Shown piece after piece: positions 11,526-42,120 of a DNA stretch of 64,000 bases. Each line of letters opens with the position of its first letter. Position 1 is the stretch's first letter. The position numbers and the translations under genes are program-made. This DNA comes from Candidatus Gottesmanbacteria bacterium. GTDB taxonomy: Bacteria > Patescibacteriota > Microgenomatia > UBA10105 > UBA927. The stretch covers positions 104,392 through 168,391 of the forward strand of contig CAWEKC010000005.1 in NCBI GenBank assembly GCA_963809665.1, read 5' to 3'. Under the pieces are notes generated by a model, which was given only the letters and a program-made list of their open reading frames with translations, did no database searches and was not told where the DNA came from.

Positions 11526-11546
11526 GAATCCAGTATAACAAAGAGA

Positions 11547-13367: not shown

Positions 13368-13388
13368 CGTTGCCCACGCGAGTATTAT

Positions 13389-14771: not shown

Positions 14772-14773
14772 AG

Positions 14774-14894: not shown

Positions 14895-14921
14895 CCGATT
14901 TCTATTACTGCTACTATTAAT

Positions 14922-17017: not shown

Positions 17018-19246
17018 TTATGACCCCGCCTTAACAGGGGTTGACGGGCACGGCTTTGTACATCCCGCAGTTGTCACACATCCGCTAATCGCCTCCGGCG
17101 AAAGCGCGGAATCTCCCGTGGGCACGAAATCCAGAACATTGCCCCCCGACAGTACGCCAAAGTGCAGATGGGCACCACTGGAGTTGCCTGTCTGATCCAT
17201 CCACCCAAGCTGTGCGTTTGCGTTAACGTGTTGCCCCGCCTGAACACCCAGCGTGCTCTCCAGGTGCGCAAAAATGAGTGTATACCCATCGTCCGTTTTT
17301 AGAATAACATGATTGCCGTAGCCTGCATATGAGGGGCTTCCGCCGCACGTGTCTCCCAGGTGCCCGGAATTGGTTACGCAGCCGGCGTAAGCCTCAACAA
17401 CGGTTCCCGCCCTCGGCGTATAGACGGGGCCGCCGGAAAAACTGGCAATATCAATGCCGTTTGCCGCAGATCCCGACGAATGAGACGTGCTTACGGAACA
17501 AAATACTGCGGTATTAGGGCCTTGGGTTATATAGCCGCTGGTGGGCCAGCGGCAATCACCCGTACAGGCAATAAAACTACACAAGGGATCGTCAGGCGTC
17601 AGTTGGCAATTAACAGTCGGACCGCCCGTCATGCCGCCCCCCGCGTTGGTTGCAATAGACGTGTCAACCATGGATTGGTTGAACGAGGGCGTGTTTATCA
17701 AGGGAAACAGCGGGAGAAAAAAAACAGCTACAATTCCCACCATAGCAACAAGAATCAAATTGTCTTCAGGGTTTTTGCTGTTGCCCATGAACAGCAAGCT
17801 TTTGAGGATGGCGGCGCCCTTCCGGAGCAGCCCCTTGGCAAAATCCGATGCGATCATTGCAAGCGTGGCGATTCCACCCGTACTTGCTCCCGCCACAGCC
17901 TCAGCGCCCACCTTCATTGCTGTGCTGACAGCTGCTTTTGTCGCAGCCTCTTTAACACCCGCCTTAATCGCTTTCTTCATGACATAATTGGTGCCCATAC
18001 GGAGAAGCTGCTGGCCATAACCAAGCGCGATATTGCCGTAGTGGGAAACGCTGACCACCGTGTAACTCAATGGGGTGGTGATCCGGTAGGTTTCCATGTA
18101 TGTAATGACGTTTACGATCGGCGGTCCGCGGAAAACCGTTGTGGCGACATCGGATACAATTGCCGTAAATCTGGATGTAATTTTTAGTGCAGCACCCTGA
18201 TCACCCATCATGCGGTTTGCATCGGTCCTGAGCCTGGTAAACCACGCAGAGTTGACAAAATTTGTTCCCCACCTGTCCGTCATTGTCGCCAAAACATTCG
18301 GAGGGAGGGTTTCGGGATGATTGACGATAGTGTCCAGCGGTTTCAGCAGTATTTTATTAATGATGGTCCCTTTTTCTGCCGTCGGTACGACAGCGTCAAG
18401 TATTCCCGCGGCACCTTTTTGAAAATTATTTGTTGCAAGCGCGGAGAATGATGGCGCCCCCGGAAATGTGCCGATGGATGCGGAGAGAACCTTTGCGGCA
18501 TCCGTGACTTCGGCCGCGCGGGGCACAAACACTTTTACGTCACGGTCGGGTTGCTCAGAAGCAAACGACGTGAGCGCATGGAAAAAGAGCTCTTTTTCTT
18601 CCGGTGGTCCAGGGCGCTGGATCGCGGCGACGGCGATTTCCCTGATCCGTTCCGGCGTCACAGGTGTGCCCTGTGCCTCCTGCGCTTGCAAGGTCGACTT
18701 CTTACTACCAATAAAAATATCCAAGCTTTCAGCTTGATCCCCACTGTCCCACACATCACCCCAACCCGGTACCGACTCGAGGGGCGCGCCCTGAATTTCC
18801 TGCGGCGCTGGAGCTTGTGGAGAAGTTTGCTCAGGGTACGCACCAGAACCTCCCGCAATTGTTTCAGAAATAGTTACGTTTGATTTTTTTGCGTTTTCTA
18901 CTAACGCCCTGACGAATTTTTTTGACGCGGTAGCCGCATTGACACGCTGCGCTTTTGCGTCGGCAAATTCCCTATCAAACTCCTCAACCAGCTCATTCAA
19001 TTTTGCTTCTTCAATGTTGTTGGGAAGAAGTGCTGCCGCCTGAGCGCCCTGCTCACCCGCAGCCCCCGTTGTTTCAAAATAGCGTAAGAACGCCTCGGTT
19101 GGCCGTTTGGGAAACGGCCACGACGTGAACGGATTTGCCCCCGGGTATTTATTGAAAAACCCCTCGAGCGTTTCCGGATCTTCCTGGAGGTTTAGCAAAA
19201 TCCCGAGCGCCCTCTGTGTTTCCTGTGATGACGCAAATTCATCCAT
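17018..19246 (-). CDS. large protein with a C-terminal M23 (LytM-type) metallopeptidase domain and internal TM segments; putative cell-wall-remodelling component of a T4SS-like apparatus
   Basis: C-terminus ...GNHVILKTDDGYTLIFAHLESTLGVQAGQHVNANAQLGWMDQTGNSSGAHLHFGV carries the HxxxD / HxH M23 signature; it lies immediately downstream of virB4. Confidence 0.7.
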   Translation of the reverse strand: MDEFASSQETQRALGILLNLQEDPETLEGFFNKYPGANPFTSWPFPKRPTEAFLRYFETTGAAGEQGAQAAALLPNNIEEAKLNELVEEFDREFADAKAQRVNAATASKKFVRALVENAKKSNVTISETIAGGSGAYPEQTSPQAPAPQEIQGAPLESVPGWGDVWDSGDQAESLDIFIGSKKSTLQAQEAQGTPVTPERIREIAVAAIQRPGPPEEKELFFHALTSFASEQPDRDVKVFVPRAAEVTDAAKVLSASIGTFPGAPSFSALATNNFQKGAAGILDAVVPTAEKGTIINKILLKPLDTIVNHPETLPPNVLATMTDRWGTNFVNSAWFTRLRTDANRMMGDQGAALKITSRFTAIVSDVATTVFRGPPIVNVITYMETYRITTPLSYTVVSVSHYGNIALGYGQQLLRMGTNYVMKKAIKAGVKEAATKAAVSTAMKVGAEAVAGASTGGIATLAMIASDFAKGLLRKGAAILKSLLFMGNSKNPEDNLILVAMVGIVAVFFLPLFPLINTPSFNQSMVDTSIATNAGGGMTGGPTVNCQLTPDDPLCSFIACTGDCRWPTSGYITQGPNTAVFCSVSTSHSSGSAANGIDIASFSGGPVYTPRAGTVVEAYAGCVTNSGHLGDTCGGSPSYAGYGNHVILKTDDGYTLIFAHLESTLGVQAGQHVNANAQLGWMDQTGNSSGAHLHFGVLSGGNVLDFVPTGDSALSPEAISGCVTTAGCTKPCPSTPVKAGS

Positions 19247-19250
19247 AGCG

Positions 19251-21299
19251 TTACACCTTTTCTACGGTAAATGTCGGCCGGGCGCTCTTATCCTCTTCGG
19301 TTATCATCATTGCCTGCCCGCCATCGCTACGCTCCCCGGCCGCCTCGCCTGGTTTGGCTGGCGGGCTGGCAGGCGTTAGCGGGCGGGGTTTTTGTACGCT
19401 TGCTTTGTTCTCTGCCAATTCCTGCGGTTTGGTGGTGGCAAGCGCGTGCTCTTCGGGGCTTGATATGACGCGGATGGCCGCGTGAGCCGGACCGGCAAAA
19501 AACAAGCCCTCGCCGATGTCGGCAGAGAGAAGCAGGTGTTGTTCTCCCTCGGACAAATAAAACACCTGCGCCACCTTATCAATGGCGGCGGACGATTGTT
19601 TGAGAAGTATCTGGACACTGCTGTTCTGGATGATGGATTTGCCCAGGTCAACGGACAAAAAGTCCTCGACGTCCTGGGTAATGGTCGTGAGCCCCAGATA
19701 ATATTTACGCGCACGTTTGGCGATGGAATTCAAAAATTGCCCCGAGTCCGGATATTTCATCATATACCACGCCTCGTCAACGATAAGGATCCGGCGCTTA
19801 ATGTCCCTGCGGATTTTCGTCCAGATATAATCAAGGATGAGGTACATGGCGATAGGCCGCAGCTCGTCTTCCAGATCCCGTATCGAAAATACCGTCAGTT
19901 GGTTACGTATTTCTACGTTGGTCTGCCGGTCAAAGATGCCGACCAGACTTCCTTTAACAAATTTTTCTATACGGTCCGCAAGGCCCCGGGCCGCAGGATC
20001 TTCCATGCCGATAAGAGCTTTATATAAATCTTCCATAAGCGGCGGCTCTTTCGTTTGTGTGGCGGGGTCAGGGGTAATTCCTTTTTGTTTATAGGTAAGG
20101 ATGAGCGCGCGGTCCAGAATGGCGTCTTCCGTGGGGGTGAGTTTTCCCATAACCACGCGGAAAAACCCGTGCAGGGATAATATTTTCTGGTTCAGCTCGC
20201 TTTCTTCCTCTTCTCCCTTGGTTTGGGTGAAGAGCGAGAGGTCAAACGGGTTAATTTTTGTCGTTGATCCGAAATGAAACCGGATGTATTCGCCCCCGAG
20301 CGCGTGGGAGAGCGATTCATATTCGGATTCCGGATCTATGACAATCACTTCCGTGTCAAACATAAGGCTCCGCATGATTTCCAGTTTCACCATGTAGCTT
20401 TTCCCGCTCCCGGACTTCCCGAACACGACGGTATTGGCGTTTTCCATCGTAAACCGGTCAAAGATAACCAGGCTATCATTGTGTTCATTAATACCATAGA
20501 GAATTCCTTCGTTGGCGGTGAGCTCCGATGTGGTAAAGGGGAATGTGGTCGCGAGCGACGTGGTGTCCATATTGCGTGTGATAACGAGTTGGTCCCGCCC
20601 CATGGGAAGCGTGGCTTTAAACCCTTCTTCCATCTGCAGAATTGCGCGTTTGGTAATAATAAGAAGCGACGAAAGCGTTGCCTCCACCTGTTTTGTGGTC
20701 TTGTTGAGGTCTTCAAGATTTTTTGCGGGTATCGTGATATACAGGGCAAACTGGAAAAAGCGCTGGGCGCCCTTGGCCAGTTCCTGCTGGAGGGCAACCG
20801 CGTCCTCGAGGGCGACCTGGACCGAGGGCTCCACAACCCTCCCGCGCTTCATGTCTGACTGAATGGTTGCCTCCATTTCCCCGACCCTGCGCTTGAGGTT
20901 TTCCAGAACCTCCTCGCTTTTCGTAGGGTACACATACATGGCAATGTCCAGCGTGTGGTTGAACGATATAAGCGGCTCCAGCCAGTTTGCGGACACAAAC
21001 CGCGGGTACCCGGCGACAAACAGTGTACGGAAATACCTGTCGCCGATTTTTATCGTATCAAAATCCACTTCAATCGCCGGCGGGGCAATGAGATCTTTCA
21101 CGGTTAACGGCCCGCCTCGCGTCGACGGTGCGTCTTCGCGAGTCGAGGCGGGCACGGGATTGACGAATTTTTTGACTGCTGATTGAACGCTCGATACATC
21201 CATATGGTTACGTTCCCACCGCCTTCTCAATATTGGTGGGGTTGACAATCGGCGCGCCCTGGTTATAAATTTCATAGAACAGGCGCACAAGCTGCTCAT
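19251..21299 (-). CDS. virB4: VirB4/TrbE/CagE-family type IV secretion ATPase
   Basis: Walker A VVFGKSGSGKSYMV, DPESEY, Walker B RRILIVDEAWYMM and ARKYYLGLTTITQ; 682 aa with a Pro-rich C-terminal tail. Confidence 0.85.
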   Translation of the reverse strand: MSSLCACSMKFITRARRLSTPPILRRRWERNHMDVSSVQSAVKKFVNPVPASTREDAPSTRGGPLTVKDLIAPPAIEVDFDTIKIGDRYFRTLFVAGYPRFVSANWLEPLISFNHTLDIAMYVYPTKSEEVLENLKRRVGEMEATIQSDMKRGRVVEPSVQVALEDAVALQQELAKGAQRFFQFALYITIPAKNLEDLNKTTKQVEATLSSLLIITKRAILQMEEGFKATLPMGRDQLVITRNMDTTSLATTFPFTTSELTANEGILYGINEHNDSLVIFDRFTMENANTVVFGKSGSGKSYMVKLEIMRSLMFDTEVIVIDPESEYESLSHALGGEYIRFHFGSTTKINPFDLSLFTQTKGEEEESELNQKILSLHGFFRVVMGKLTPTEDAILDRALILTYKQKGITPDPATQTKEPPLMEDLYKALIGMEDPAARGLADRIEKFVKGSLVGIFDRQTNVEIRNQLTVFSIRDLEDELRPIAMYLILDYIWTKIRRDIKRRILIVDEAWYMMKYPDSGQFLNSIAKRARKYYLGLTTITQDVEDFLSVDLGKSIIQNSSVQILLKQSSAAIDKVAQVFYLSEGEQHLLLSADIGEGLFFAGPAHAAIRVISSPEEHALATTKPQELAENKASVQKPRPLTPASPPAKPGEAAGERSDGGQAMMITEEDKSARPTFTVEKV

Positions 21300-21906
21300 T
21301 GGTTAATTGTTTCGCCGCCAGGCCGATGCGGTTCAGAAGCCGGATGATCTGATCTCCTTTCGGCGCCAGGACGATAAGCGCCCGTTCAAAAATATAGGGT
21401 CTCGGGTACGGGAGGCCCCGTTTTTTTGACCCGCCCAAAAGTACGTTAGCGCTCACGCCCAGCTCCAGATATGAGAAGGGTACGACGATGTAAAATTTCT
21501 TATCCAGAACATCTTTTTCCTTAACGGTTGCTGCGACAAACAGGCGGTATCCGTGCATCGCTGCGGCAAGCTTCGGATTTTTCTGTATTTTTTCGCGGTC
21601 TTCCAGCGTCTGCAGATATGCCGTCACGTCTTTGTGTTGGGTGCGGATAAGAATTTCAATCGGAAACGACAGGGAGTTGAGGAGCCCCGCATACGCATAA
21701 ATAATGGCATCCTGTTCTTTTTCGGACAACAATCCGAAATTGACGGCGGTCGCCGATACGACCATGGAACACGAGCCGTCTGTATACATAACAATCCCGT
21801 GGTCGATAGTTTCTATTTCTGTGAATAGTTGTGTGGATGAGCGGATGGGCACGATTGAATCCGGCATACGATTACTGTGTTGTTGTCCCGAACAATTCTT
21901 TCTCAA
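21208..21906 (-). CDS. hypothetical protein in the T4SS-like cluster; its 5' end overlaps virB4 by ~90 nt
   Basis: 232-aa ORF with no recognised motif; the true start may be an internal Met. Confidence 0.4.
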   Translation of the reverse strand: MRKNCSGQQHSNRMPDSIVPIRSSTQLFTEIETIDHGIVMYTDGSCSMVVSATAVNFGLLSEKEQDAIIYAYAGLLNSLSFPIEILIRTQHKDVTAYLQTLEDREKIQKNPKLAAAMHGYRLFVAATVKEKDVLDKKFYIVVPFSYLELGVSANVLLGGSKKRGLPYPRPYIFERALIVLAPKGDQIIRLLNRIGLAAKQLTNEQLVRLFYEIYNQGAPIVNPTNIEKAVGT

Positions 21907-23122
21907 GTTTTGCTCGTGTTATTTCTTTTTCTGTTTTTGCAAAAATTTCAAGCGCGGGTACGATCGATCCGTTGAGCGTGATTTGCGCCCGATCAAAGGT
22001 AAAGCGCAGGCGCGGATCCTCTACTTCTACAAAATACGTGCCATTGGGAAGCTGGGTGGATGCCGCAAATTGCCCGAGACGGTTTGTTTTGAGGGCCCGC
22101 AGCGGCATACCCTCTTTGTCTTTCACCGTCACGAGGACACCGGGTAATAAATTTTTATCTTTATCCTTGACGATCCCCGTGACGATATTGGGGAACGTGG
22201 TAAGCCGCGGAAGACCCACTTTTGCCGCCCGTCCGGGACCAATGACTTGGATGGTGGGCATAGCGGGTGTGGAAGGCGTTTGCGTCGTAGTCGTCGTTGT
22301 GGGCTCAATTTTCGGGGCGCTGCTTTGCGCTCGCAGATGTGCCATTTCCGTCATCATTTTTTCCTGTTCGGCCAAGAGTTCGGTCAATTGCGTCTGCAGT
22401 TCCGCTACACGAGATTCCGCAGCGTTTTTACTTTCCAACTCCGCCGTGAGCTTTTTAAGTTTTTCTTCAAGGACCGATTCTTTGAGCTGGGTATCCGCAA
22501 GCTCCCGTGCGACGCTTGGGGCGGGTCTCACAATCGGGGGAGGCGAAAAATCCATCTGACGCGCCCGTATAGCCGCCTGCATGGCAACAGGAGGTGCCTT
22601 TTTGGGTTTGGGCGTCCAAAAGTCGGAAAGAATGTCAAACAGGCTTCGCTTGGGGGCAGCAACCGTAATGACCTCCTGGGACGTGGGAGGCGGTACGCTG
22701 AAGGAGGGAGCAGGAATAAAAATATTTTGCAGAATATCTCCGCGGCGCGTCTGGGGCTCGGCAGCCCGCGGCGGGACAACCACCGCCCTACCGGCCGGCA
22801 GGTTTGATTGAGGTTGTGGTTGAGCCGGAGGTGAAACCTGTTTTTTCCATACATACTGCGTCGGGTTATAAATACTCCTGATAAACGAAAGAACCCACAC
22901 GTCCATAGGACGCTCTTCAACCGGTACAAATGCCAGCCCGAATCCCAGAATCGCAGAAAATACTGCCAGCGGCACGGTAAAAATAAATGGCAGCGGTAGT
23001 TTGTATATGATGTAGGCGACGACTGCCCCGCCCACAAGATACCCGAATTGTTTCAAAGTCATATCGCCGATCAGGCGGAATTGAAACGTGGTGACATTTT
23101 GCGGTATCGGATGCTGTTCCAT
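21872..23122 (-). CDS. membrane protein with a VirB3/PrgI-like N-terminal TM hairpin, a central coiled coil, a Thr-rich linker and a C-terminal carboxypeptidase-regulatory-like beta-sandwich domain
   Basis: MTLKQFGYLVGGAVVAYIIYKLPLPFIFTVPLAVFSAILGFGLAFVPVEERPMDVWVLSFIRSIY forms the TM hairpin; coiled coil LKESVLEEKLKKLTAELESKNAAESRVAELQTQL; C-terminus GVLVTVKDKEGMPL...GQFAAS...NGTYFVEV. Confidence 0.45.
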   Translation of the reverse strand: MEQHPIPQNVTTFQFRLIGDMTLKQFGYLVGGAVVAYIIYKLPLPFIFTVPLAVFSAILGFGLAFVPVEERPMDVWVLSFIRSIYNPTQYVWKKQVSPPAQPQPQSNLPAGRAVVVPPRAAEPQTRRGDILQNIFIPAPSFSVPPPTSQEVITVAAPKRSLFDILSDFWTPKPKKAPPVAMQAAIRARQMDFSPPPIVRPAPSVARELADTQLKESVLEEKLKKLTAELESKNAAESRVAELQTQLTELLAEQEKMMTEMAHLRAQSSAPKIEPTTTTTTQTPSTPAMPTIQVIGPGRAAKVGLPRLTTFPNIVTGIVKDKDKNLLPGVLVTVKDKEGMPLRALKTNRLGQFAASTQLPNGTYFVEVEDPRLRFTFDRAQITLNGSIVPALEIFAKTEKEITRAKLEKELFGTTTQ

Positions 23123-24668: not shown

Positions 24669-27600
24669 GTGGTATCTATGGCAGAAGCGGAAACAAAATC
24701 CGAAACGAATGTCAGCAAAGTCATCGCAAATATTTTAAAGGCGGCGCGCGAACAGTCGAAACAGCCGAAACCGGAAGAGGTTGCCAAGATTGTACACCGT
24801 ATATATCCGGAAAAAAAAGCGGCTCCCGACGCGAAACAAGCCCGCACCGACCGCATTATTGAAAATGCCAAACATGTGGTCGTTGAAGCAAAAATCCAAG
24901 GTGTACATGTATCCACGGGGTTACACGAGTGGGTTGGCCGAAACAAGCTTCCCATATTAGACAAAGACCCCTCACAAGCGTTCAGAATTGCCAAAGCGGA
25001 TCTTTCTGTTGCCATAAAAGCGTCCGATTTAGCTGAAGACCACTGGGTTGTACGTGCAGCATCCCGGGTAAAAAACGCAGAATCAGCAGAAGCGCTTGCA
25101 ATTATCGCGCTTGCCCCCGAAGACGTGCGAGAGAATCCCAATTTTATGTTCCAGACTGCGGCGCAACTTGCGGGCTCTAATCTTGATCCCGAAACCCAGG
25201 TAACAACCAAAGCGTTTGTTGCGGAACTGAAAACCCTGCGGGGGGTTGACGGATTTGAGATGAGCGACCGCCAGTTGTCACAGGCACTGACGGAGCAGGG
25301 GCTAGGGGCGATGCCCGCGCCATCACCGGATTTTGACCCCGCACTATTTTCAACTTTACCCAATGAGGCACAGGATGTATTCCGCGCGCTTAATTCACAG
25401 TTATCAGGTGCAGCAACAGAAGTGGAAAAATTTGAAATTCTTGATTCTTTTTCTGACCAAATCCACGCAATTGATACCAAAGGGTTTAATCAATCTCAAC
25501 GTGAGGTTTTGTCTCGGTTGCTAGTTATAAAAAATAGTATAGAAAGAGATTTAAAGTTTAAAATTTCTCCCCGTATATCCGTGGATAAAGATTGGTTTAG
25601 GGATAATGACCTGCCCATTCCGAAGTCAAAGAATTTTACGTTTGAAACACGCCTGAGTAAAGAGGAAATTAAAGCCATGTGTGCCAAGGCGGACGAAGAT
25701 GGCTTTGATGGTTTTGACAGGGCATACGAACTTTTATCAGACCGCATTTTTACCAGTGGAAGCGAGGCACATCAACCGGATATTACGGACTCCTATGAAT
25801 ATAAGGAGATAGAAAATCTTCTCCGGTATGTGCACGGGGAAGAGAGTGCTATTGTGAATGCAACCAGGGAACGATGGGAAAACGATTACAGGAGAAACGT
25901 TGTCGCAACCCGTACTATTACTGGGGGTGCAAATGAAAAAGAACTCGTGGAAAGTTTACCAAGCGCCATCGCCTCGAACACCCTTAATTATGAGGCAAGC
26001 ATTAAATTTGCTCCCGAGGCCGTTGCCGCGGAAGAGCAGACGATCAGAGAACTAGCAGCAGAGCAGGCATTTAAATGTGAGAAAGACACGCGATATCTTA
26101 AGGAACTTATTCCCGATCCCGATCCGCATCATATAGGAGAACATATAAGTCGGGAAGAAGCGTGGCGCCGCAATCCAGCAGATTTTCATGGGAATGAGTA
26201 TATTCGGACAGAAGATGCAATGCGTGCAGCACGCGGGAGCATTGTTCATGACGAATGGTTTGTTCCGAACTCGCCGAAATTCGCCAGACTAATTGCCGTA
26301 ACTAAAGCCATGACGGATGAAATTGAGGATCCCGTCAATCCGATAACTGAAGCAGCTGCTCTAGTAAAATATAATGATAATGCAAACCACGAGTTGGAAA
26401 ACCTCTGGAAACTGGTGACCCTGGAAAAACATCCACCCCCAGGCGGGTTGTACAACCCCAAATACCTTAACGCAATCAAGGGATTTTCTCCGCTTGAGAT
26501 TCGTACACATAAACAACTCGAATCGTTTGTAAAGCTGAAATTTCTTCAGCAGGGGAGAACGTGGAATGAAGAGGTAGACAATATTAAGTTACGGCGTGCA
26601 ATGTTTTCCGCCCGGCGCTATATGGTGGGCAGCAAACGGCTGTTTTCTCTGGTTGGGCATCTTTCCAACATGCCGGGGCTCGAAATAGAGGCGGGAGCTG
26701 CAGACGTGATGCCCGAGACCCTCGAATACGTCATGCGGACCGAAGTACCCGAGCGCTTCGTGTTTGCGCGCTTTGGTATAGGAAAGGAAGTTGGCATCCG
26801 GATCATGTCTGTAGAACAGGAAGAGTTGTGTGCATTGCGGGGTGTGACGCTAGATAAAAACGAAAGACTTGTACCGATATTAAATAATAGTAAGAGTGCA
26901 AAGGAAGAATCAATTCCGAAGCGGCGGTACAGGACAGTACTCCAAAAAGCGAAAGAGAAATTCGGACTCAGATATACAACGCTAGCCACAGGAACACTGT
27001 TGGAATCAACGAGCCCGTTTGACTACAGTACGTGGAGGGCGGAAGAGGGAATCTGGCGGGTGCTGCAGGAAAAATTTGGGGAAAACGCACGACATATGGC
27101 ATATGGCACCCAGTTGAAGCTGCTCGGAACATATGAAGGTAGAATTCCAGAAACTCGAAAAGAAGTCGAAGCAATAAAAAATTATTTTGAGAGAAGAAGG
27201 GTATTAACCGAAATGACCCACAGAACGCCATCGTTTATTTTTCAGCTTATCGGTAAAGATCTGGATACGAGTTTAGAGAATCTGCGTACGACGGGCGCGG
27301 TACACATCGATGTTTCACCAGGAAGCACAGAAGGAAAGAAATTTTTCTCAATTTTAGGTTTGGCAGAGCGCAGGGTAACTACAGAGCGAAGCGCACCTCC
27401 GGGCCATAACTTTTTTGAGCGTGGGATATTTAACTTGGGTACCCCCACCGATTTTAATGAGGTATTTGATGATACGCTTTTTCATGCAGTCGGTATTACG
27501 GCTCGCGAACAAATAGACGCGCTTAAAGTTGATTATCTTAAAATCATCCAGACAGCGCAGCATGTCTTTAATCCGCGACCGGAAGAGGGGTATCTGGAGC

Positions 27601-28403
27601 AGTTTGCTCAGCGCGGCATGCCTATCACGCTCACCATGTCCGACTTCGACCTTGCGGATGCGGACTTTCAACGCATAGGCGCGTCGGGCCAACGGCGGAC
27701 CGACCAAGGCGACGCCATGTCAAGACTTGAGGCACGGAGCGCTCTGATGACCATACTAAACGACCCTGATGTTTCCCTTCCGGATAACCCAGAGAAGACA
27801 TTTATTCCCGTACTTAAGAAGCTTATGGGAGATATAAACAGTTATAAAGATGGATATTTTGCAGAAAAGCGATCTGCCATCATGCTAGATGCGGTATTAA
27901 GCCAGAATGTTGCAAAGGATTTTTACCGGGGCATAATTCAAGCAGTTCCGTTCTTGCCGGGGTTAATTCGCAATATTGTTGCACAGGACGCGCGGAAGCC
28001 GTTGGTCCGGGCGTTATTATGGCCCGCAAAGCAATTAGCCATGGGGTATGCAGACCTGAGCGGGCAATCCGAGTTACGTGAATTATTACAGTCGAATCCG
28101 GAAGAGTGGCCAAAAATATTCGGTCAGGAATTCATTTCGGAAGCTGCAGCGGTAAAGGGATTTCACGGTAATGCGCTTAAGGCGCTGGGGACAGAAAGAT
28201 TTATCCAGCAAATAGAGAAGTCGGGATTATTCACCCATCATGAGTTTCTTCACAATCTGAAGGATAAATATAAAACAAGGTTTCAGTTCAAGTTTGCCGA
28301 ATTCGGTATGCGGTATTGGTGGGTACCCTGGGCCGCAGCCCTCGCCGTGGGAATAATGATTGCGATGAAAGAGCAGGGGCTAGATTCGGACGGGCATAAA
28401 TAA
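24669..28403 (+). CDS. giant 1244-aa hypothetical protein with one predicted C-terminal TM helix (tail-anchored) and no recognisable catalytic motifs
   Basis: An uninterrupted ORF with balanced composition; the C-terminus RYWWVPWAAALAVGIMIAMKEQ is hydrophobic; it is convergent with the VirB6-like gene. Confidence 0.55.
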   Translation: MVSMAEAETKSETNVSKVIANILKAAREQSKQPKPEEVAKIVHRIYPEKKAAPDAKQARTDRIIENAKHVVVEAKIQGVHVSTGLHEWVGRNKLPILDKDPSQAFRIAKADLSVAIKASDLAEDHWVVRAASRVKNAESAEALAIIALAPEDVRENPNFMFQTAAQLAGSNLDPETQVTTKAFVAELKTLRGVDGFEMSDRQLSQALTEQGLGAMPAPSPDFDPALFSTLPNEAQDVFRALNSQLSGAATEVEKFEILDSFSDQIHAIDTKGFNQSQREVLSRLLVIKNSIERDLKFKISPRISVDKDWFRDNDLPIPKSKNFTFETRLSKEEIKAMCAKADEDGFDGFDRAYELLSDRIFTSGSEAHQPDITDSYEYKEIENLLRYVHGEESAIVNATRERWENDYRRNVVATRTITGGANEKELVESLPSAIASNTLNYEASIKFAPEAVAAEEQTIRELAAEQAFKCEKDTRYLKELIPDPDPHHIGEHISREEAWRRNPADFHGNEYIRTEDAMRAARGSIVHDEWFVPNSPKFARLIAVTKAMTDEIEDPVNPITEAAALVKYNDNANHELENLWKLVTLEKHPPPGGLYNPKYLNAIKGFSPLEIRTHKQLESFVKLKFLQQGRTWNEEVDNIKLRRAMFSARRYMVGSKRLFSLVGHLSNMPGLEIEAGAADVMPETLEYVMRTEVPERFVFARFGIGKEVGIRIMSVEQEELCALRGVTLDKNERLVPILNNSKSAKEESIPKRRYRTVLQKAKEKFGLRYTTLATGTLLESTSPFDYSTWRAEEGIWRVLQEKFGENARHMAYGTQLKLLGTYEGRIPETRKEVEAIKNYFERRRVLTEMTHRTPSFIFQLIGKDLDTSLENLRTTGAVHIDVSPGSTEGKKFFSILGLAERRVTTERSAPPGHNFFERGIFNLGTPTDFNEVFDDTLFHAVGITAREQIDALKVDYLKIIQTAQHVFNPRPEEGYLEQFAQRGMPITLTMSDFDLADADFQRIGASGQRRTDQGDAMSRLEARSALMTILNDPDVSLPDNPEKTFIPVLKKLMGDINSYKDGYFAEKRSAIMLDAVLSQNVAKDFYRGIIQAVPFLPGLIRNIVAQDARKPLVRALLWPAKQLAMGYADLSGQSELRELLQSNPEEWPKIFGQEFISEAAAVKGFHGNALKALGTERFIQQIEKSGLFTHHEFLHNLKDKYKTRFQFKFAEFGMRYWWVPWAAALAVGIMIAMKEQGLDSDGHK

Positions 28404-28407
28404 TAGT

Positions 28408-29820
28408 CTATCCTTCTTCTGCGGGAGGCGGTGGGGGATTGCCTTTGCCAGCCTCAATAGCATTATGAAGATCTCTATTACTTTGTAGTGTTTGTTTTTG
28501 AATTTTGTGGCTGGATATCATGCTTCCGATTTGAACTGCCTGCATGGCAATACCGCTTGCAGCACCCAGTCCTCCGCCCGTTCCGCCAAGAAGCGATTTA
28601 GTTTTAAGTGCCTGCTTGATGGAATTGGCCATACCCGGAATAGTGAGAAGTATTCCCAGACCGATAACTCCGATCCACCCCGAAGATCCTCCATTAGCGA
28701 GGAGCGGCGGGGTCCAGAGTTTGGTTGCACCCTGATCAAAATTGGCTAATATTGTCCCGACCATAAGCATCGCAGCGGTAACGGGGAATACGGCAATATT
28801 GGAAATTAAATTTTTGAACCACGACGAGAAGCCCGTACCGCCGGGGAATGCCTCGGTGAGAATTTGCAGCGGACCGATGAGCACGCTGATAAGAATTTGT
28901 ATATACGCGCCTACTAGCATAAATAATATACGAATCCACGCAATGACTAGTACAAGCGATACGATAATTGAAATGAGTGCACCGATGACCGGGGCGAGCG
29001 CACCCTCCGCGGCACCGGTAGCGCCTGCAGTAATGCCGCCGGTGAGAAGATCTGTAATGTTATTGACAGCAGCAAATCCCCCCCCGAACACCGCACTAAA
29101 GAGATTCCAGAATCCTCCGTTCACGTATGTTGATCCCGTTGTTGGCGCTAGTGCGCCGTTACTGACGGGAATCAACAGTGATGCGATGAGCGCGATCATC
29201 AAATACATGAGGTCAATCATAAATCCGACAATCGCATAAGAAAACGTAATCAGAAGAAGGGTAACGACGATTTTCGGTAGCGCATTCTGGACCGTCACAA
29301 CGGTCTTCGGATCGATTTTCTTCCGGAACATAACCATAAAACCAATAACAACCATCACGACCGCAAGCAGGGCATAGGCAATATTACGGAATCCCTTCCA
29401 GAGAGGAAGAAGAACGGAGAGACCGCTGAACCCGATTCCCTGCGCATTCACCTGACGCGGCATGAATCCGAGCGTTTGTCCGGTATCCCGTATCCACAGA
29501 GCCAGATCCGCAGGGGGATTGTTATACATGGCTACTGCCACGTTTTGCATTGAAGCAATTGCGCTCTTACCGTAATAGAATGCGCTTGCAGGGTTTGAGC
29601 TGCAGCCTGTAGCCATGCACGAGAATGTGTTCATGTAGAGCACCTGGGTATTTACGGTATACACTTCTTTGCTCATTTGTCCATTTTGAGATTTTTGGTC
29701 TACAACCGCGCCGAATTCTTCTGCGCTGGGCGCCGGATTAATCGCTTGTGCGTGGGCTGCCGGCACAAAAATCCAGCCAGTGAGAATGAGAACGAGGAAT
29801 ACGAGCAGCGTACGCTTCAT
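28408..29820 (-). CDS. VirB6/TrbL-like polytopic membrane protein with a signal peptide and a Pro-rich C-terminus
   Basis: Signal peptide MKRTLLVFLVLILTGWIFVPAAHAQA, a ~130-aa periplasmic segment, then at least six TM helices; it sits immediately upstream of the pilin array. Confidence 0.5.
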   Translation of the reverse strand: MKRTLLVFLVLILTGWIFVPAAHAQAINPAPSAEEFGAVVDQKSQNGQMSKEVYTVNTQVLYMNTFSCMATGCSSNPASAFYYGKSAIASMQNVAVAMYNNPPADLALWIRDTGQTLGFMPRQVNAQGIGFSGLSVLLPLWKGFRNIAYALLAVVMVVIGFMVMFRKKIDPKTVVTVQNALPKIVVTLLLITFSYAIVGFMIDLMYLMIALIASLLIPVSNGALAPTTGSTYVNGGFWNLFSAVFGGGFAAVNNITDLLTGGITAGATGAAEGALAPVIGALISIIVSLVLVIAWIRILFMLVGAYIQILISVLIGPLQILTEAFPGGTGFSSWFKNLISNIAVFPVTAAMLMVGTILANFDQGATKLWTPPLLANGGSSGWIGVIGLGILLTIPGMANSIKQALKTKSLLGGTGGGLGAASGIAMQAVQIGSMISSHKIQKQTLQSNRDLHNAIEAGKGNPPPPPAEEG

Positions 29821-29859
29821 AGATCTATTATGCTAACTATGTTGGTATGAGTCAATGTG

Positions 29860-30180
29860 TTAATAGCTGGGGATGGTAAATTGTGTGACATCTACGCCGG
29901 TAAATAAAGAAATCGTTTTCAGTATCAGGTAGGCAACAACGATAATAACGACGCCGGTGATAGCCGCCGTCAGCGTACCGCGCGCTTTCTCAAGTTTTTT
30001 CTGGTCTCCGCCGGATAACAGGAATCCGTAGCCCCCGACGATGAGCATCACAAATAAAGCAACGCCCACAAGCGCGGTGAGCGCCTGAACAACGCTGATA
30101 AATATCGGCTCAAAACATTTGAATGTTGCCACGTCCTGTGCATTTGGAAGTGTTGAGAAGCATCCTGACCAATCAGCCAT
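29860..30180 (-). CDS. TrbC/VirB2-like pilin family protein, copy 1 of a six-gene tandem array
   Basis: ~100 aa with two hydrophobic helices flanking the conserved motif LLSGGDQKKLEKARGTLTAAITGVVIIVVA. Confidence 0.55.
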   Translation of the reverse strand: MADWSGCFSTLPNAQDVATFKCFEPIFISVVQALTALVGVALFVMLIVGGYGFLLSGGDQKKLEKARGTLTAAITGVVIIVVAYLILKTISLFTGVDVTQFTIPSY

Positions 30181-30231
30181 GCAAACATTATCACGCAGAT
30201 TACGTTAGTAGGCAAGAGACAAGAGAGCGGT

Positions 30232-30561
30232 TTAGAACGGTGACGGTATTGAGATTGATCCGCCGATGATCTGTATGCCCAGGAAGTTCTGGACCAGAAT
30301 CATGACAGCCCATGCGGCGCCGACGATTATAAGTCCGACAATCGCGTGGGTAATTTTATTGCGGGCTGCTTCCATACCGGCTTTGTCGCCGCCGGACGTG
30401 ATCCACTGAATACCGCCCAGGATCAGGAAGAAGAACGCCATGAGTGCCGCAAGGATAAGGAGGAGACCGACGAGCGCACTGATGAGTTTCCCGATATCGC
30501 CGATTTTTACGTTCGTGGGTTGCGGGATAGTAATTTCTGCCTGTGCAAATACCTTTTCCAT
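30232..30561 (-). CDS. TrbC/VirB2-like pilin family protein, array copy 2
   Basis: ...ITSGGDKAGMEAARNKITHAIVGLIIVGAA. Confidence 0.55.
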   Translation of the reverse strand: MEKVFAQAEITIPQPTNVKIGDIGKLISALVGLLLILAALMAFFFLILGGIQWITSGGDKAGMEAARNKITHAIVGLIIVGAAWAVMILVQNFLGIQIIGGSISIPSPF

Positions 30562-30635
30562 AATTCCTCCTTATAACGATCGGTTTCTATTATATCCTTG
30601 CTCTCATTGTTGCGCAACCGTCTTCGGTTTGTCAA

Positions 30636-30992
30636 CTATTGATTAATGCCCGGAATGGTGAGGTGCGTGAGTTCAATACCGAAAAATCGTCCGACCAGCG
30701 TCATGATGGCGAACGCCGCCGCCACAATCACCAGCCCCATGATGGCGTTGGTGATACCATTCCGTGCCTTTTCAAGTGCCTGTTTATCTCCGCCCGCGGT
30801 AATCCATTGAAGGCCGCTGGTAATAAGAGTCATGAACGCGAGTAAGAACGCCGCGATAAACAGCGCACCGATCAGATTGCTGATAAGCAGTCCCAGCGCG
30901 TTGCCGCCCTGGCTTACATCAGGGTGTGAACCGCCCCCTAAAGCGGGAGGCAGGATGGGATTCCGGATTTGCGCAAGAAAATTTATTCTCAT
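30636..30992 (-). CDS. TrbC/VirB2-like pilin family protein, array copy 3
   Basis: ...ITAGGDKQALEKARNGITNAIMGLVIVAAA. Confidence 0.55.
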   Translation of the reverse strand: MRINFLAQIRNPILPPALGGGSHPDVSQGGNALGLLISNLIGALFIAAFLLAFMTLITSGLQWITAGGDKQALEKARNGITNAIMGLVIVAAAFAIMTLVGRFFGIELTHLTIPGINQ

Positions 30993-30995
30993 ACC

Positions 30996-31379
30996 TTATT
31001 TAATTTGTAATTGTTCTATGATTTTTGCGGGATCGCCGACAAGAATGTCATAGCCCAGGAACTGACCGACCGTCGCAATGATGATCCATGCGGCAACGAC
31101 GATAATGAGTCCGAAAAACCCGTTCATGATCCGCTGCCTGGCAGTTGTGAGCTTTTTTACGTCGCCCGCGCTGGAGATCCACTCATATCCGCCGAAGAGG
31201 AGCTGGAATAAAAACCAGATGCTGCCGGCGATCGTCATAAACCCGACGATTGCCGAAATAGCGTTGGTTACCTGGATAAGCGCTCCTGTGCCCGTTGTGG
31301 CGGGGTTTTTGCCGAATGGCCCCAATCCTTCACCCCCGATAGGGCCGAGCGGAACCTGTGTTTGTGCAAGAAGTGTCAT
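30996..31379 (-). CDS. TrbC/VirB2-like pilin family protein, array copy 4
   Basis: ...ISSAGDVKKLTTARQRIMNGFFGLIIVVAA. Confidence 0.5.
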   Translation of the reverse strand: MTLLAQTQVPLGPIGGEGLGPFGKNPATTGTGALIQVTNAISAIVGFMTIAGSIWFLFQLLFGGYEWISSAGDVKKLTTARQRIMNGFFGLIIVVAAWIIIATVGQFLGYDILVGDPAKIIEQLQIK

Positions 31380-31744
31380 GGGTTGGGTGCGTAAATCTTG
31401 GGATTTAAAATAAATCCTGCATCGCCGAATAATAAATATCCGAAGAGAGCGGCAAGAGCAAACGATCCGACGACAAGGATAAGTCCTATCAGCGACTGCC
31501 AGATTTTACTCATGGCTTTTTCAATCGCTTTGGAATCTCCGCCGGCACTCATAAATTGGAATCCCGCTAGGATAAGGTTAAAAAAGGCGAATAATCCCGC
31601 TACTACAAATACAAGCCGGAGAATATTAGTCAAAAACACTGTAAGACCACCGATGCCCCGATATGCTGGAGCAATCTGGTCGTTTGTGACCTTCCCGACA
31701 ATACTGGTTGCGTCCTGTGCGAATATTTTTTCTATACCGATCAT
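31376..31744 (-). CDS. TrbC/VirB2-like pilin family protein, array copy 5
   Basis: ...MSAGGDSKAIEKAMSKIWQSLIGLILVVGS. Confidence 0.5.
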   Translation of the reverse strand: MIGIEKIFAQDATSIVGKVTNDQIAPAYRGIGGLTVFLTNILRLVFVVAGLFAFFNLILAGFQFMSAGGDSKAIEKAMSKIWQSLIGLILVVGSFALAALFGYLLFGDAGFILNPKIYAPNP

Positions 31745-31749
31745 AATTA

Positions 31750-32133
31750 TTACAGTCCGACTATCTGCTTTAACATGGGCGAGCCCGTTATGGTGGCGAT
31801 CACCTGTACGATAAGTACAGACAGTACGACAATAAGAAGTCCTATGACCGCGCCGGTTATCGCATTTTTTCCCTGATTGGTTTGTTTTGCATCACCGCTC
31901 CCTGTTCCCATAATAACGCCGAATCCGCCTATAATCAATAAAACAAAGCTGATAATGCCGGCAAACACGACGGCATTTTTGACGATAAGGGTTACAATTT
32001 GACCAAAATCTGTAAATGTAGCCGCCGGAGCGAAAACGTTAGGGTCACCAATATTTACAGCCATGCATTTAGTGTACGGGAGTGTGATTCCACTGTCAAT
32101 TTGTGCTATAGTTATAGCCTGTGGACGACGCAA
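31750..32133 (-). CDS. TrbC/VirB2-like pilin family protein, array copy 6; probably starts at the internal Met (MAVNIGD, ~32064) rather than overlapping the sigma-factor start
   Basis: ...IMGTGSGDAKQTNQGKNAITGAVIGLLIVVLS. Confidence 0.5.
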   Translation of the reverse strand: MRRPQAITIAQIDSGITLPYTKCMAVNIGDPNVFAPAATFTDFGQIVTLIVKNAVVFAGIISFVLLIIGGFGVIMGTGSGDAKQTNQGKNAITGAVIGLLIVVLSVLIVQVIATITGSPMLKQIVGL

Positions 32134-32660
32134 ACATCATCCCTAAGATTCTTGCGCGCGACCGGCAGGCACTGCTGATATTTTACCGCAGGTATGCCCC
32201 GAAGCTCTCGCGTTTTATTGCCGGAAAGATCGCAAATCCGGCAGACGCGGAAGAGGTTTTGCAGGATACGCTCTACGCATTTCTGGAGGCTATCCGCGAT
32301 TTTCAGGGAAAGAGTAACATCCAGACCTTCTTATTTTCCATTTGCCAGCACAAAGTTATCGATTATTACCGGAGAAAGAAGCTGAAACACGCAGTCTTTT
32401 CCCAGATGCCGCAGCTTGAGGCGATTATTTCGCCGCTCGTAAGTCCCGAAGAACAGCTGGACGCCGTCCTGGTGCGTGAGAAAATCCATGCGGTATTGGG
32501 TAGGCTCTTGCCGCGCCACCGCCAGATACTGATGCTTAAATATCTGGACGGATTGTCCGTTGAGGAAATTGCAAAACGCCTGGCCATGACATTTAAGAGT
32601 GTCGAGTCCCAGCTTTTCCGGGCGCGCAAAGCCTTTGTTGAATATTTTATATCCATATGA
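32121..32660 (+). CDS. ECF-type RNA polymerase sigma factor (sigma-70 regions 2 and 4)
   Basis: Region 2 LQDTLYAFLEAIRDFQGKSNIQTFLFSICQHKVIDYYRRK; region 4 LSVEEIAKRLAMTFKSVESQLFRARKAFVEY. Confidence 0.8.
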   Translation: MDDANIIPKILARDRQALLIFYRRYAPKLSRFIAGKIANPADAEEVLQDTLYAFLEAIRDFQGKSNIQTFLFSICQHKVIDYYRRKKLKHAVFSQMPQLEAIISPLVSPEEQLDAVLVREKIHAVLGRLLPRHRQILMLKYLDGLSVEEIAKRLAMTFKSVESQLFRARKAFVEYFISI

Positions 32661-32887
32661 CCAATACCACATATCAGAAGTTTGTAAAGCGGTGGGAAGA
32701 GGTGACGGATCTGCCGCCGCAGACGGTGGGGCCGTTCACACCTCTCTATAAAGCAATTGCCCGGCGGCTTAAGGTTATGCCATGGCCGGTACTGGTGTTT
32801 TCAGCTGTCATTGTGGTTATCGGATTGTATTTACTTATCGGCTCTGCTATTACGCTCCTTGTCTCCATCCTCCAGCGAGGGTTTTAA
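32657..32887 (+). CDS. small single-pass membrane protein translationally coupled to the ECF sigma factor; candidate anti-sigma factor
   Basis: ATGA overlap with the sigma-factor stop; 76 aa with a short cytoplasmic N-terminus and then one TM helix. Confidence 0.35.
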   Translation: MTNTTYQKFVKRWEEVTDLPPQTVGPFTPLYKAIARRLKVMPWPVLVFSAVIVVIGLYLLIGSAITLLVSILQRGF

Positions 32888-32914
32888 CTCACACGTTACG
32901 ACTAATACGTATAC

Positions 32915-33532
32915 ATGGAAACATCGCTTATTGTCGCGCTCGTTGAATTCAGCAGGAATATTATAGGACTTGTTACCCGTCCATATGAGACTTGCCGCAG
33001 GATTGCGGATCGCGGTGGATTTGGAGAACTTGTATATGTAGCGGTACTTCTTTCCGTATATTTCGCTTTTGCGTCACTCGTAAAAGTTGCTTCATTCCGG
33101 CCGTTTTTACTTTCCCGCCAGTTTATCGTTCTTTGTGCTGCGACGGGGGGAACATATCTTTTTGCCGTTGCGCTTTTTTGGACGGCGGGAAAGTTGGTTG
33201 GGGCCCACGGACGGTTGAAGGGCCTTGCCGTCCTGTGGGGATATTCGCTTCTGCCTACGCTTCTTTGGTTTTTCACTACGTCTCTCCTATATCTTCTGTT
33301 GCCTCCGCCACGCACAACAAGCGTCCAGGGCATTCTTTTCAGTGTGTTATTCCTCGTGTTTTCCACCACGTTGTTATTATGGAAAATGACGATTGCGTAT
33401 TTATCACTCCGGTTCGGGCTCAGGCTGGGTTTAGGAAAAATTCTGGTTATATTGGTGGTCTCACTCCCGATTCTGGGACTGTATAGCTATTGGCTGTATC
33501 ATTTAGGGATATTCAGAATTCCATTTTTATGA
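32915..33532 (+). CDS. polytopic membrane protein, possibly Yip1-family-like
   Basis: 205 aa with ~5 TM helices; an ATGA overlap with the next gene. Confidence 0.4.
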   Translation: METSLIVALVEFSRNIIGLVTRPYETCRRIADRGGFGELVYVAVLLSVYFAFASLVKVASFRPFLLSRQFIVLCAATGGTYLFAVALFWTAGKLVGAHGRLKGLAVLWGYSLLPTLLWFFTTSLLYLLLPPPRTTSVQGILFSVLFLVFSTTLLLWKMTIAYLSLRFGLRLGLGKILVILVVSLPILGLYSYWLYHLGIFRIPFL

Positions 33533-40583: not shown

Positions 40584-40934
40584 CTAAGGGACTCTGGGAA
40601 AGACACTGTTTATGGATTCAAGCCCGAAGATGGTGCCGACAAGCTGGACAATCCAGTATGCGGCAAACACGATGAAAAACCCCACGATTGCATTTGTGAG
40701 CTGCTGTTTTCCCTGTTGCATTTTTTTTGCATCACCCGCGCTGGTTAAAAACGTATAGCCGGCGGAAATCAGCATGAGGAGTAATCCCAGTCCTGCAAAC
40801 GCCATTACTAAAGGAACTGCAGTAGAGAGAATGGCGCCGATGGTCGGGTTGGGTCCAGCTCCAGGAATATTGAGTGGGCCTTTTAGAGTGTTGCCGCCCG
40901 GCAGAGTTAAATTTTGTGCCAATAGGTTGTGCAT
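40584..40934 (-). CDS. TrbC/VirB2-like pilin family protein (seventh paralog, outside the main array)
   Basis: ...LTSAGDAKKMQQGKQQLTNAIVGFFIVFAA has the same motif as the six-gene array. Confidence 0.5.
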   Translation of the reverse strand: MHNLLAQNLTLPGGNTLKGPLNIPGAGPNPTIGAILSTAVPLVMAFAGLGLLLMLISAGYTFLTSAGDAKKMQQGKQQLTNAIVGFFIVFAAYWIVQLVGTIFGLESINSVFPRVP

Positions 40935-40938
40935 ACTA

Positions 40939-42120
40939 TTATAAAAACCCAGGAATACCGAGGATAGTTACCCCGATAAGCCGCAATATAAATATTGAAA
41001 AGATTATAATGAGCAATCCCGTGATGGCGCTGGTGACCAGTTCTTTTCCGGCATTGAGTCTTTCCGGGTTTCCGCCGCTCATGAGTATCTGGAACCCACC
41101 GAAGAGAATGAGGAGAAACGCAATCCCGCCGCCGATACCCACCCCGATCCCGATAACTTGCCCAATGAAGGTGGCCGGATCAGTCGGGATGCATCCAAAA
41201 GCTGTCCACGCATGTAGCCCATCGGCCATGCACGCGTGACACGTATCAACGTTGGTTCCGGCAAATTCACAGACTTTGGTTGCTTGGTCAGAACTCGATT
41301 TTTTTACACAGCACCCGCTCGCCAGACATAGACCGATATCCCAGGCTTCATCCGGCAGTTTCTGATTGCAGTCTTGATTAGTCGTACAGACTCCTCTTCG
41401 ACCGTCACTTGTTTTGCAGGTTTGACCGAGGGTTGGCCTCTTTGTTTCCGGTGATCCAGGTCTGGCTGCGCAGCAGCCGGGTATTGCTGTAAGTTTATAC
41501 ACATCCATACATTGGTCAGGATCTGGATTAAAATTAATATTTGAATTATCTTTATTACACTCGGTAAAGAGTGAACATAACCCCGGCCAGCTTTCCGTCT
41601 TACTTATTATGAGCGTGCAGGTTTTTTGTCCTGTTGTGACGGGTTTTGTTGCGCAGCAGCCGCCTGCCTTACATGTTTTCCTGTCCCACACCCCATTATC
41701 CTGAAAGTCAATAACTAAGCAGTTAAACGTGTCTGTACAGATACCCGGCCATGTGTTTCCGGCGGTACATTTCTCACCAATGCCAGGCAACGCAGCATCG
41801 GGTGTTCCCGGTTTGATTCCGCAACAGCCGACGGGGTATCCCTTATCCGGATTCTCATCAGGCATGCATGTTGTGACTGCCGAATCCCATTTTCTATTGC
41901 CGCTTGATACGATACAATCCTGTTTTATTACACACTGTCCTGACCAGGCAGGGTCGTTGATGGTGGTACAAGGATCCCCAACGTGTTCATATTTTTGACC
42001 TGGTCCATACGGATCGGCTGCATGTGCTTTTGTCGCGAGCATTCCAAAAATTCCGGTGGCTAAAATGAAGAATAAGGAGGTCAGAATAACCTTTTTAAGC
42101 ATACGATATAAGTGTATCAA
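40939..42120 (-). CDS. secreted Cys-rich protein (~33 Cys) with a C-terminal TrbC/VirB2-like pilin domain; putative pilus-associated adhesin or minor pilin
   Basis: Signal peptide MIHLYRMLKKVILTSLFFILATGIFGMLATKAHA; recurring motifs such as GCCxxKP/GCCA; C-terminus GGFQILMSGGNPERLNAGKELVTSAITGLLIIIFS matches the pilin motif. Confidence 0.5.
   Translation of the reverse strand: MIHLYRMLKKVILTSLFFILATGIFGMLATKAHAADPYGPGQKYEHVGDPCTTINDPAWSGQCVIKQDCIVSSGNRKWDSAVTTCMPDENPDKGYPVGCCGIKPGTPDAALPGIGEKCTAGNTWPGICTDTFNCLVIDFQDNGVWDRKTCKAGGCCATKPVTTGQKTCTLIISKTESWPGLCSLFTECNKDNSNINFNPDPDQCMDVYKLTAIPGCCAARPGSPETKRPTLGQTCKTSDGRRGVCTTNQDCNQKLPDEAWDIGLCLASGCCVKKSSSDQATKVCEFAGTNVDTCHACMADGLHAWTAFGCIPTDPATFIGQVIGIGVGIGGGIAFLLILFGGFQILMSGGNPERLNAGKELVTSAITGLLIIIFSIFILRLIGVTILGIPGFL

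Follow-up and report, generated by a model that had tools for sequence, protein, structure and literature searches.

A large fraction of bacterial diversity falls within the Patescibacteria, which are dependent on host cells. Arrays of pilin genes linked to a type IV secretion system (T4SS) have already been published for this group: the survey of Quinonero-Coronel et al. (2025; PMC12102498) counts 441 of them across 383 assemblies, with 2–11 pilin genes each, above all in Microgenomatia and Saccharimonadia, located near dnaA and without relaxases. The pilin series of Southlakia epibionticum is reported to be essential (Wang et al., 2023; PMC10633639), and a 2025 review counts six divergent VirB2-like pilins in this species and proposes a pilus-like conduit (PMC12857230). 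No T4SS other than that of Patescibacteria is reported to be essential for the growth of its carrier (PMC10633639, PMC12857230). Here we describe a stretch of 64,000 nucleotides (the window) of a Candidatus Gottesmanbacteria genome (GenBank assembly GCA_963809665.1, contig CAWEKC010000005.1, positions 104,392 to 168,391), in which six tandem pilin-like genes, pil1 to pil6, lie directly upstream of a gene encoding a VirB6-like protein. This region is very probably the pilin/VirB6 module of a Patescibacteria T4SS.

The locus resembles the arrays of Quinonero-Coronel et al. (2025; PMC12102498) and that of S. epibionticum ML1 (SEML1_0006-0019) in having tandem PF18895/VirB2-like genes that are about 25% identical to each other, and shares with them a chromosomal T4SS abundant in Microgenomatia, with an MPF-FATA-like VirB4 and PrgI, without relaxase and near dnaA. 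It differs in the presence of about 5 kb of opposite-strand genes between the array and virB4, and in the direct coupling of the array to a VirB6-like gene, a component that HMM (hidden Markov model) profiles mostly miss in Microgenomatia according to the same source. The array had been considered unusual in the initial annotation, a view that the 441 published arrays and the six-gene essential array of S. epibionticum do not support. What we add to this known kind of locus is a fixed set of six genes with positional orthology, expression signals specific to individual genes and a structural candidate for VirB6; fixed order, positional orthology and expression asymmetry are not met in the available parts of PMC12102498 and PMC10633639.

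Tandem VirB2-type genes are also found in the host-interaction T4SS, not used for conjugation, of Bartonella (Trw, with tandem trwL/trwJ) and Anaplasma (virB2 paralogues). The Bartonella TrwL copies are true PF04956 members, 50–63% identical to TrwL of R388, whereas the window array matches only PF18895. According to PMC12102498, the Bartonella copies are tandem amplifications with a presumed role in antigenic variation or host-surface binding; in contrast, the array described here is ancient, fixed at six and positionally orthologous. The VirB2-VirB6 module of R388 and Agrobacterium (PDB 7o3v) likewise combines a two-helix pilin gene, a polytopic VirB6 platform and a VirB4 ATPase, but it has one pilin instead of six, whereas the window system is monoderm and its pilins lack a signal peptide.

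A Tandem Array of Six PF18895 Proteins

The open reading frames (ORFs) of the window include six small minus-strand ORFs in succession, followed by an ORF of 470 amino acids (aa) (Table 1). In each of the six proteins, two hydrophobic segments are joined by a short loop whose net charge is slightly positive, and the tails are almost without charge. They share the consensus ITSGGDxKxLEKARNxITxAIxGLIIVVAA, of which G, D and G are invariant, and the paralogues are 23–33% identical to pil1 in pairwise comparisons. The initial annotation had described six minus-strand paralogues with two hydrophobic segments and a shared motif, with which the ORFs, the hydropathy and the consensus alignment agree; it had placed them after the VirB6-like gene, whereas they precede it when the coding (minus) strand is read. 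The start of pil1 is most likely the ATG at 32064 (104 aa, MAVNIG...) rather than the TTG at 32133 that opens its longest ORF (32133..31750), because orthologues start at this ATG (consensus MAVD) and the ORF from the TTG overlaps the divergent sigma-factor gene. Some features are proper to single members and retained by their orthologues, such as the N-terminal motif PLGxIGGEGLGPFG of pil3 and the consensus DWSGC...C of pil6.

Table 1. Features of the window discussed in the text (SD, Shine-Dalgarno sequence; ECF, extracytoplasmic function; TM, transmembrane).
Feature	Coordinates	Strand	Remarks
pil1	31750..32064	minus	PF18895 25.3 bits, E 1.7e-5; array position 1
pil2	31376..31744	minus	PF18895 29.0 bits; position 2; 5 nt past pil1; no SD
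pil3	30996..31379	minus	PF18895 29.0 bits; position 3; 4-nt overlap (ATGA) with pil2
pil4	30636..30992	minus	PF18895 31.4 bits; position 4; 3 nt past pil3
pil5	30232..30561	minus	PF18895 35.8 bits; position 5; candidate major subunit
pil6	29860..30180	minus	PF18895 37.6 bits; position 6; N-terminal tail with two Cys
VirB6-like protein (divergent, polytopic, 470 aa)	28408..29820	minus	Signal peptide, ectodomain of ~115 aa, at least 5 TM helices
Promoter-like site and SD ahead of pil5	30566..30635	minus	TTGACA-18-AACAAT at 30635..30606; AAGGAGG at 30572..30566
-35/-10-like pair, pil1	32099..32071	minus	
-35/-10-like pair, pil6	30215..30187	minus	-10 is GATAAT
-35/-10-like pair, VirB6-like gene	29855..29827	minus	
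VirB4-like ATPase, monoderm CD1110 / MPF-FATA type	19251..21299	minus	NF045971 403 bits (cut-off 325); PF19044 and PF12846
PrgI-family (VirB3-like) protein	21872..23122	minus	PF12666 37.4 bits; long C-terminal extension
M23 peptidase-domain protein	17018..19246	minus	PF01551 69.5 bits; directly after virB4; candidate cell-wall hydrolase (VirB1 analogue)
232-aa ORF between PrgI-like gene and virB4	21208-21906	minus	No Pfam match
dnaA/dnaN	13350-16028	plus	Opposite to the T4SS genes; beside the T4SS cluster
pil7 (PF18895 pilin-like, 116 aa)	40584..40934	minus	PF18895 41.5 bits
pil8 (~388 aa)	40939..42102	minus	Signal peptide, four Cys-rich repeats, C-terminal PF18895 module (25.6 bits, residues 317-381)
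ECF-type sigma factor	32121-32660	plus	Sigma70_r2 and Sigma70_r4_2 matches; divergent from pil1; syntenic in 62 loci
76-aa single-pass membrane protein	32657-32887	plus	Possible anti-sigma factor; syntenic in 58 loci
1244-aa ORF	24669-28403	plus	Convergent with the VirB6-like gene

The PF18895 profile (T4SS_pilin) matched all six window proteins (E-values from 1.7e-5 to 2.4e-9) and all 55 relatives scanned. Five of the six (29.0–37.6 bits) passed the gathering cut-off of 26.6 bits, pil1 falling just under it at 25.3. The proteins also conform to the architecture of the family, in which a protein of about 100 aa forms two hydrophobic helices linked by a short polar loop, and since all six match the profile their membership is not a matter of chance. 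The assignment to TrbC/VirB2-like pilins made in the initial annotation stands as far as the T4SS pilin family is concerned, but none of the six matched PF04956 (TrbC/VirB2). This latter profile was weakly matched by 7 of the 55 relatives (best E 4.1e-4), and the TrbC profile PRK13871 gave a sub-threshold match to pil2 only (E 0.011). No significant sequence homology was found between TrwL or TrwI of R388 (record NC_028464) and the window pilins or the 470-aa protein, and the hhalign comparison of our pilin profile with TrwL alone was not significant. Because the links to PF04956 and TrwL are weak and signal peptides are lacking, we file the six proteins under PF18895 and not under VirB2; judging from their sequences, they are plausibly PF18895 members acting like VirB2, not demonstrated members of the VirB2 family.

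The Mbov_0395 family of mycoplasma integrative and conjugative elements (NCBIfam NF045849) also consists of a small two-helix protein in a monoderm T4SS. It weakly matched five of the six window proteins (E 7.6e-6 to 3.3e-3), with scores of 17–25 bits that are below the 40-bit cut-off, and corresponds to a single gene on a mobile element, unlike the six-gene array.

Genes pil2 to pil5, as well as the more distant pil7, begin at their start codon with the motif M-x(1-5)-[FL]-[FLA]-A-Q (e.g., 30561..30538 and 30992..30966), which their orthologues keep. The motif is reminiscent of a signal-peptide end, although it lacks a preceding hydrophobic core; a similar stretch is seen at the mature N-terminus of the VirB6-like protein (AHAQA|INP).

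Conservation of the Array in Related Genomes

We compared 80 loci around homologues of the 470-aa gene, with one genome per species, nearly all from Gottesmanbacteria and other Microgenomates. Pilin genes were counted with an HMM built from the six window proteins, applied upstream of the VirB6-like gene on the same strand. Exactly six genes were found directly upstream of it in 57 loci (the window and 56 related species). The other loci were mostly cut by contig ends or belonged to distant lineages with 7–8 copies further upstream. Positional orthology was assessed through the best BLASTP match of every one of the 342 proteins in genomes other than its own: for 335 of them, this match fell at the same array position, including 57/57 for pil2, 56/57 for pil3 and 55/57 for both pil4 and pil6, and position-1 orthologues were present in all 57 arrays. 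With position-specific HMMs, the order 1 to 6 was also retained in the truncated arrays and in those with 7–8 copies, the extra copy being among positions 4–5. Judged from these comparisons, the array is composed of six orthologous groups of old origin that keep a fixed order, and the purifying constraint on each is ordinary. An origin through recent tandem duplication or gene conversion was rejected, given the strict positional orthology and the lack of repeats between paralogues.

The linkage to the VirB6-like gene noted in the initial annotation, and that to the PrgI/VirB4 cluster, are conserved in related genomes: the VirB6-like gene adjoins the pilin genes in 57 loci with PrgI/VirB4 downstream, PrgI lying on the same strand about 7–9 kb downstream of it in 45 loci. 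Synteny extends on one side to the ECF sigma factor, the 76-aa membrane protein, a Yip1-like protein and mevalonate genes, and on the other side to the convergent 1244-aa gene and nadD/nadE, with PrgI and VirB4 beyond.

These comparisons bear directly on the antigenic or adhesive variation suggested in the initial annotation, in which interchangeable pilin variants would widen the host range or allow escape from recognition. The low identity between paralogues of one array would suit such a role, as would the lower conservation of the presumably exposed N- and C-terminal tails (column identity 0.18–0.63) relative to the helical core (0.51–0.75), and PMC12102498 offers the analogy with Bartonella Trw and Anaplasma. 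However, the number of copies is constant at six across 57 loci of different species, without the copy-number variation among relatives for which the initial annotation had proposed a check, and strict positional orthology reaches distant lineages. Divergence is ordinary: mean identity of orthologues to the window proteins is 52–59% for the pilins, 74% for pil5, no faster than for neighboring housekeeping genes (by the same measure, HMG-CoA reductase 65%, nadD 41%, sigma factor 61% and VirB6-like protein 47%). The paralogues have no direct DNA repeat of more than 27 nt in common, hence none able to drive gene conversion. Even among the tails, several bear conserved motifs specific to one paralogue, and the C-terminal tail of pil2 is conserved (0.63 column identity). 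The reported essentiality of the pilin series in S. epibionticum (PMC10633639) also fits poorly with redundant variants. Together with expression signals that are distinct and conserved by position (see below), this largely refutes variation at the between-species level and leaves it very improbable. Six distinct conserved components with position-specific signals instead point to a defined heteromeric structure.

In four more distant Microgenomates (loci L068, L071, L074, and L078), 7–8 pilin genes follow the order 1 to 6, the additional copy being related to positions 4/5, and the distance between array and VirB6-like gene is about 3 kb in several of these loci.

Predicted Expression Signals

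The expression architecture was read from consensus promoter and SD motifs and from their conservation, and is suggestive only. In the window, the gaps before pil2, pil3, and pil4 are 5, -4, and 3 nt, vs. 74, 51, and 39 nt before pil5, pil6, and the VirB6-like gene. Over the 57 loci, the corresponding medians are 2–4 nt before genes 2–4 (4 nt for pil2) and 88, 71, and 39 nt before pil5, pil6, and the VirB6-like gene. Only pil5 has both its own promoter-like site and an SD; the SD is a perfect AAGGAGG and the leader measures about 45 nt. In 47 of the 57 loci gene 5 follows an SD-like sequence, compared with no more than 6 loci for any other gene, and a promoter-like site lies about 42–52 nt upstream of gene 5 in 46 of the 57.

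The ATG codons of pil1, pil6, and the VirB6-like gene each lie exactly 6 nt past the end of a sigma-70-like -35/-10 pair, and a spacing of 6–9 nt between the -10 and the start recurs in related loci for these three, but not for genes 2–4. This suggests that their transcripts are leaderless. The fifth gene is also the most conserved paralogue, with a mean pairwise identity of 0.69 and more than 120 clusters at an identity of at least 72%. Since pil5 is the sole gene with its own promoter-like site and SD and the most conserved one, it is likely the abundant (major) subunit, the other five being low-abundance partners, and it would be the subunit to look for in filaments.

The ECF sigma factor and the 76-aa membrane protein could possibly regulate the pilin genes, a role that we only infer. 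These two genes and that of a Yip1-domain protein (together 32121-33532, plus strand) are divergent from pil1 and syntenic in 57–62 loci.

The VirB6-Like Protein and the Secretion System

The 470-aa protein downstream of the array begins with a signal-peptide-like segment (residues 1–27) followed by at least five more hydrophobic segments. Its predicted structure has the helical polytopic fold of VirB6, and its best structural match is TrwI/VirB6 (PDB 7o3v), in line with the signal-peptide-bearing polytopic VirB6/TrbL-like neighbor of the initial annotation. Sequence searches said less: the protein had no match in Pfam (including PF04610) or NCBIfam, PF04610 (VirB6/TrbL) was matched by 1 of 25 relatives (E 5.2e-4), and a profile search of PDB sequences with the family gave no meaningful match. 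The hhalign comparison of its profile with TrwI was not significant (E 0.16 over 26 columns), although a GP..IL...P..F..W stretch does align. With this model, the protein becomes a candidate for VirB6 in Microgenomatia, where profile searches mostly fail to detect that component (PMC12102498).

Other components are found beyond the array, namely the VirB4-like ATPase, the PrgI-family protein and the M23 peptidase-domain protein (Table 1). No relaxase, VirD4/T4CP (type IV coupling protein) or VirB11 domain was found in the larger window ORFs scanned, in agreement with the initial annotation, which listed no VirB11 or VirD4, and none of VirB5, B7, B9, B10, and B11 was identified in the window. 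With an MPF-FATA-like VirB4, a PrgI/VirB3 protein, the vicinity of dnaA and neither relaxase nor T4CP in the ORFs scanned, the T4SS of this Gottesmanbacteria (Microgenomatia) genome is of the chromosomal Patescibacteria type, which derives from the monoderm MPF-FATA class. The 232-aa ORF between the PrgI-like gene and virB4 is probably another component of this T4SS; it is kept in 36 related loci at about 65% identity.

The same genes could be read as the conjugation apparatus of an integrated mobile element, as the VirB4 belongs to the conjugative family NF045971 and both PF18895 and NF045849 are named for conjugal transfer. Against this, the ORFs scanned contain no relaxase or VirD4-type domain, the neighborhood with mevalonate genes, sigma factor, nadD/nadE and dnaA/dnaN is syntenic across species, the GC content is uniform (about 0.47–0.53 across the region), and a tblastn search of pil4 against 72,556 plasmids gave no match. 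We consider a mobile element extremely unlikely.

A Second Pilin Locus and Membrane Topology

Two further PF18895 genes, pil7 and pil8, are located elsewhere in the window (Table 1). Among pil1 to pil8, only pil8 has a signal peptide. Its hydrophobic segments span residues 1–26, 312–346, and 353–388, and the four Cys-rich repeats are of about 55 aa apiece with six Cys each; pil8 is a possible pilin-anchored adhesin. In this protein helix 1 comes immediately after the secreted Cys-rich domain, so the pilin module would be oriented with its N-terminus out, its loop in the cytoplasm and its C-terminus out. Mature VirB2 has the same membrane topology. Pairs resembling pil7/pil8 also occur about 8–9 kb upstream of the array in three related loci (L009, L031, and L080).

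A Possible Heteromeric Pilus

In the mechanism that we propose, the pilin-like proteins would insert in the membrane in the orientation just described, the VirB4 ATPase, anchored by PrgI, would pull them out of it, and the VirB6-like platform would stack the extracted pilins. An assembly of VirB2 on VirB6 has been proposed for R388. The bulk of the filament body would be made of pil5, and the tightly coupled pil1 to pil4, lacking an SD, would together with pil6 provide low-abundance minor subunits for a tip, initiation or adaptor complex, while the M23 hydrolase would open the cell wall. The product would be a heteromeric pilus-like conduit for host-cell contact in an epibiotic interaction, serving exchange or uptake rather than conjugation, since the window yielded neither a relaxase nor a coupling protein. 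An analogy, and no more, is provided by type IV pili and type II secretion, in that an abundant subunit is accompanied by a conserved co-transcribed minor set in fixed gene order; their fold and assembly machinery are unrelated, and no prepilin-peptidase motif is present here. We regard the whole statement, the Patescibacteria T4SS pilin/VirB6 module together with this mechanism, as fairly probable; the major/minor heteromeric pilus taken by itself falls a little short of an even chance.

Several observations weigh against such a pilus. To our knowledge, no filament has been seen in any Patescibacterium. VirB2/TraA propilins typically carry a cleaved signal peptide, and the hydropathy profiles of pil1 to pil7 show no hydrophobic segment before helix 1, hence no such peptide. 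In addition to the missing PF04956 matches, hhalign gave a probability of only 0.4% between the pilin profile and a 20-sequence TrwL profile, and a profile search of PDB sequences with the pilin family returned no relevant match. The AlphaFold model of pil5 is a helical hairpin (helices 20–55 and 60–94; pLDDT, predicted local distance difference test, 77) that resembles generic helical hairpins and not pilins specifically. The VirB6-like assignment comes from a medium-confidence model (pLDDT 70) with 12% identity to TrwI, and the role of pil5 was deduced from motifs and conservation. The tails, more variable than the core, may reflect some lineage-specific surface adaptation. Finally, monoderm MPF-FATA systems are normally without a pilus (PMC12102498, PMC12857230).

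Signal peptides hidden by mis-called starts were considered and rejected, since neighboring genes touch or overlap, leaving no space for one, and no ORF on the list could be made longer.

Several of these points would fit the main rival, in which there is no pilus and the six two-helix proteins remain in the cytoplasmic membrane as a fixed hetero-oligomeric part of a channel with the VirB6-like protein, PrgI and VirB4. Besides the usual lack of a pilus in monoderm MPF-FATA systems (PMC12102498, PMC12857230), the six proteins carry no signal peptide and have no specific structural match to solved pilins, their helical cores are the most conserved parts, and a fixed set of paralogues fits a complex of defined stoichiometry. 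But the far stronger expression signals and conservation of pil5 are more in keeping with a polymerizing major subunit than with an equimolar ring, the family is weakly linked to TrbC/VirB2 and to mycoplasma pilin-like proteins, and pil8 puts a large Cys-rich ectodomain on a pilin module, as if it were presented off the membrane. A channel confined to the membrane appears rather unlikely.

Returning to the heteromeric pilus, a stricter version can be formulated, in which the six proteins would be obligate, non-redundant parts of one VirB2-type filament (one major, five minor), the four coupled genes would encode a tip or priming complex replacing the missing VirB5, and the set would be ancestral to at least Microgenomatia and Saccharimonadia. 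This version is rather doubtful; if true, the filament would be without precedent both as a multi-subunit T4SS pilus and as a pilus in a monoderm T4SS.

Other Neighboring Genes

The 1244-aa ORF is convergent with the VirB6-like gene, with the two stop codons 4 nt apart. Its product has a C-terminal hydrophobic segment and no significant Pfam family match, and it is found at the same position in 26 related loci at only about 26% identity, as a fast-evolving conserved neighbor. The dnaA/dnaN and T4SS genes are flanked by genes for a 1017-aa protein with a Big_2 domain and for proteins of 569 and 331 aa (8472-13256 and 16019-17014, minus strand). The latter two had no Pfam match at E ≤ 0.001, and none of the three was found inside the fetched flanks of the related loci; they could be surface or accessory proteins of the T4SS.

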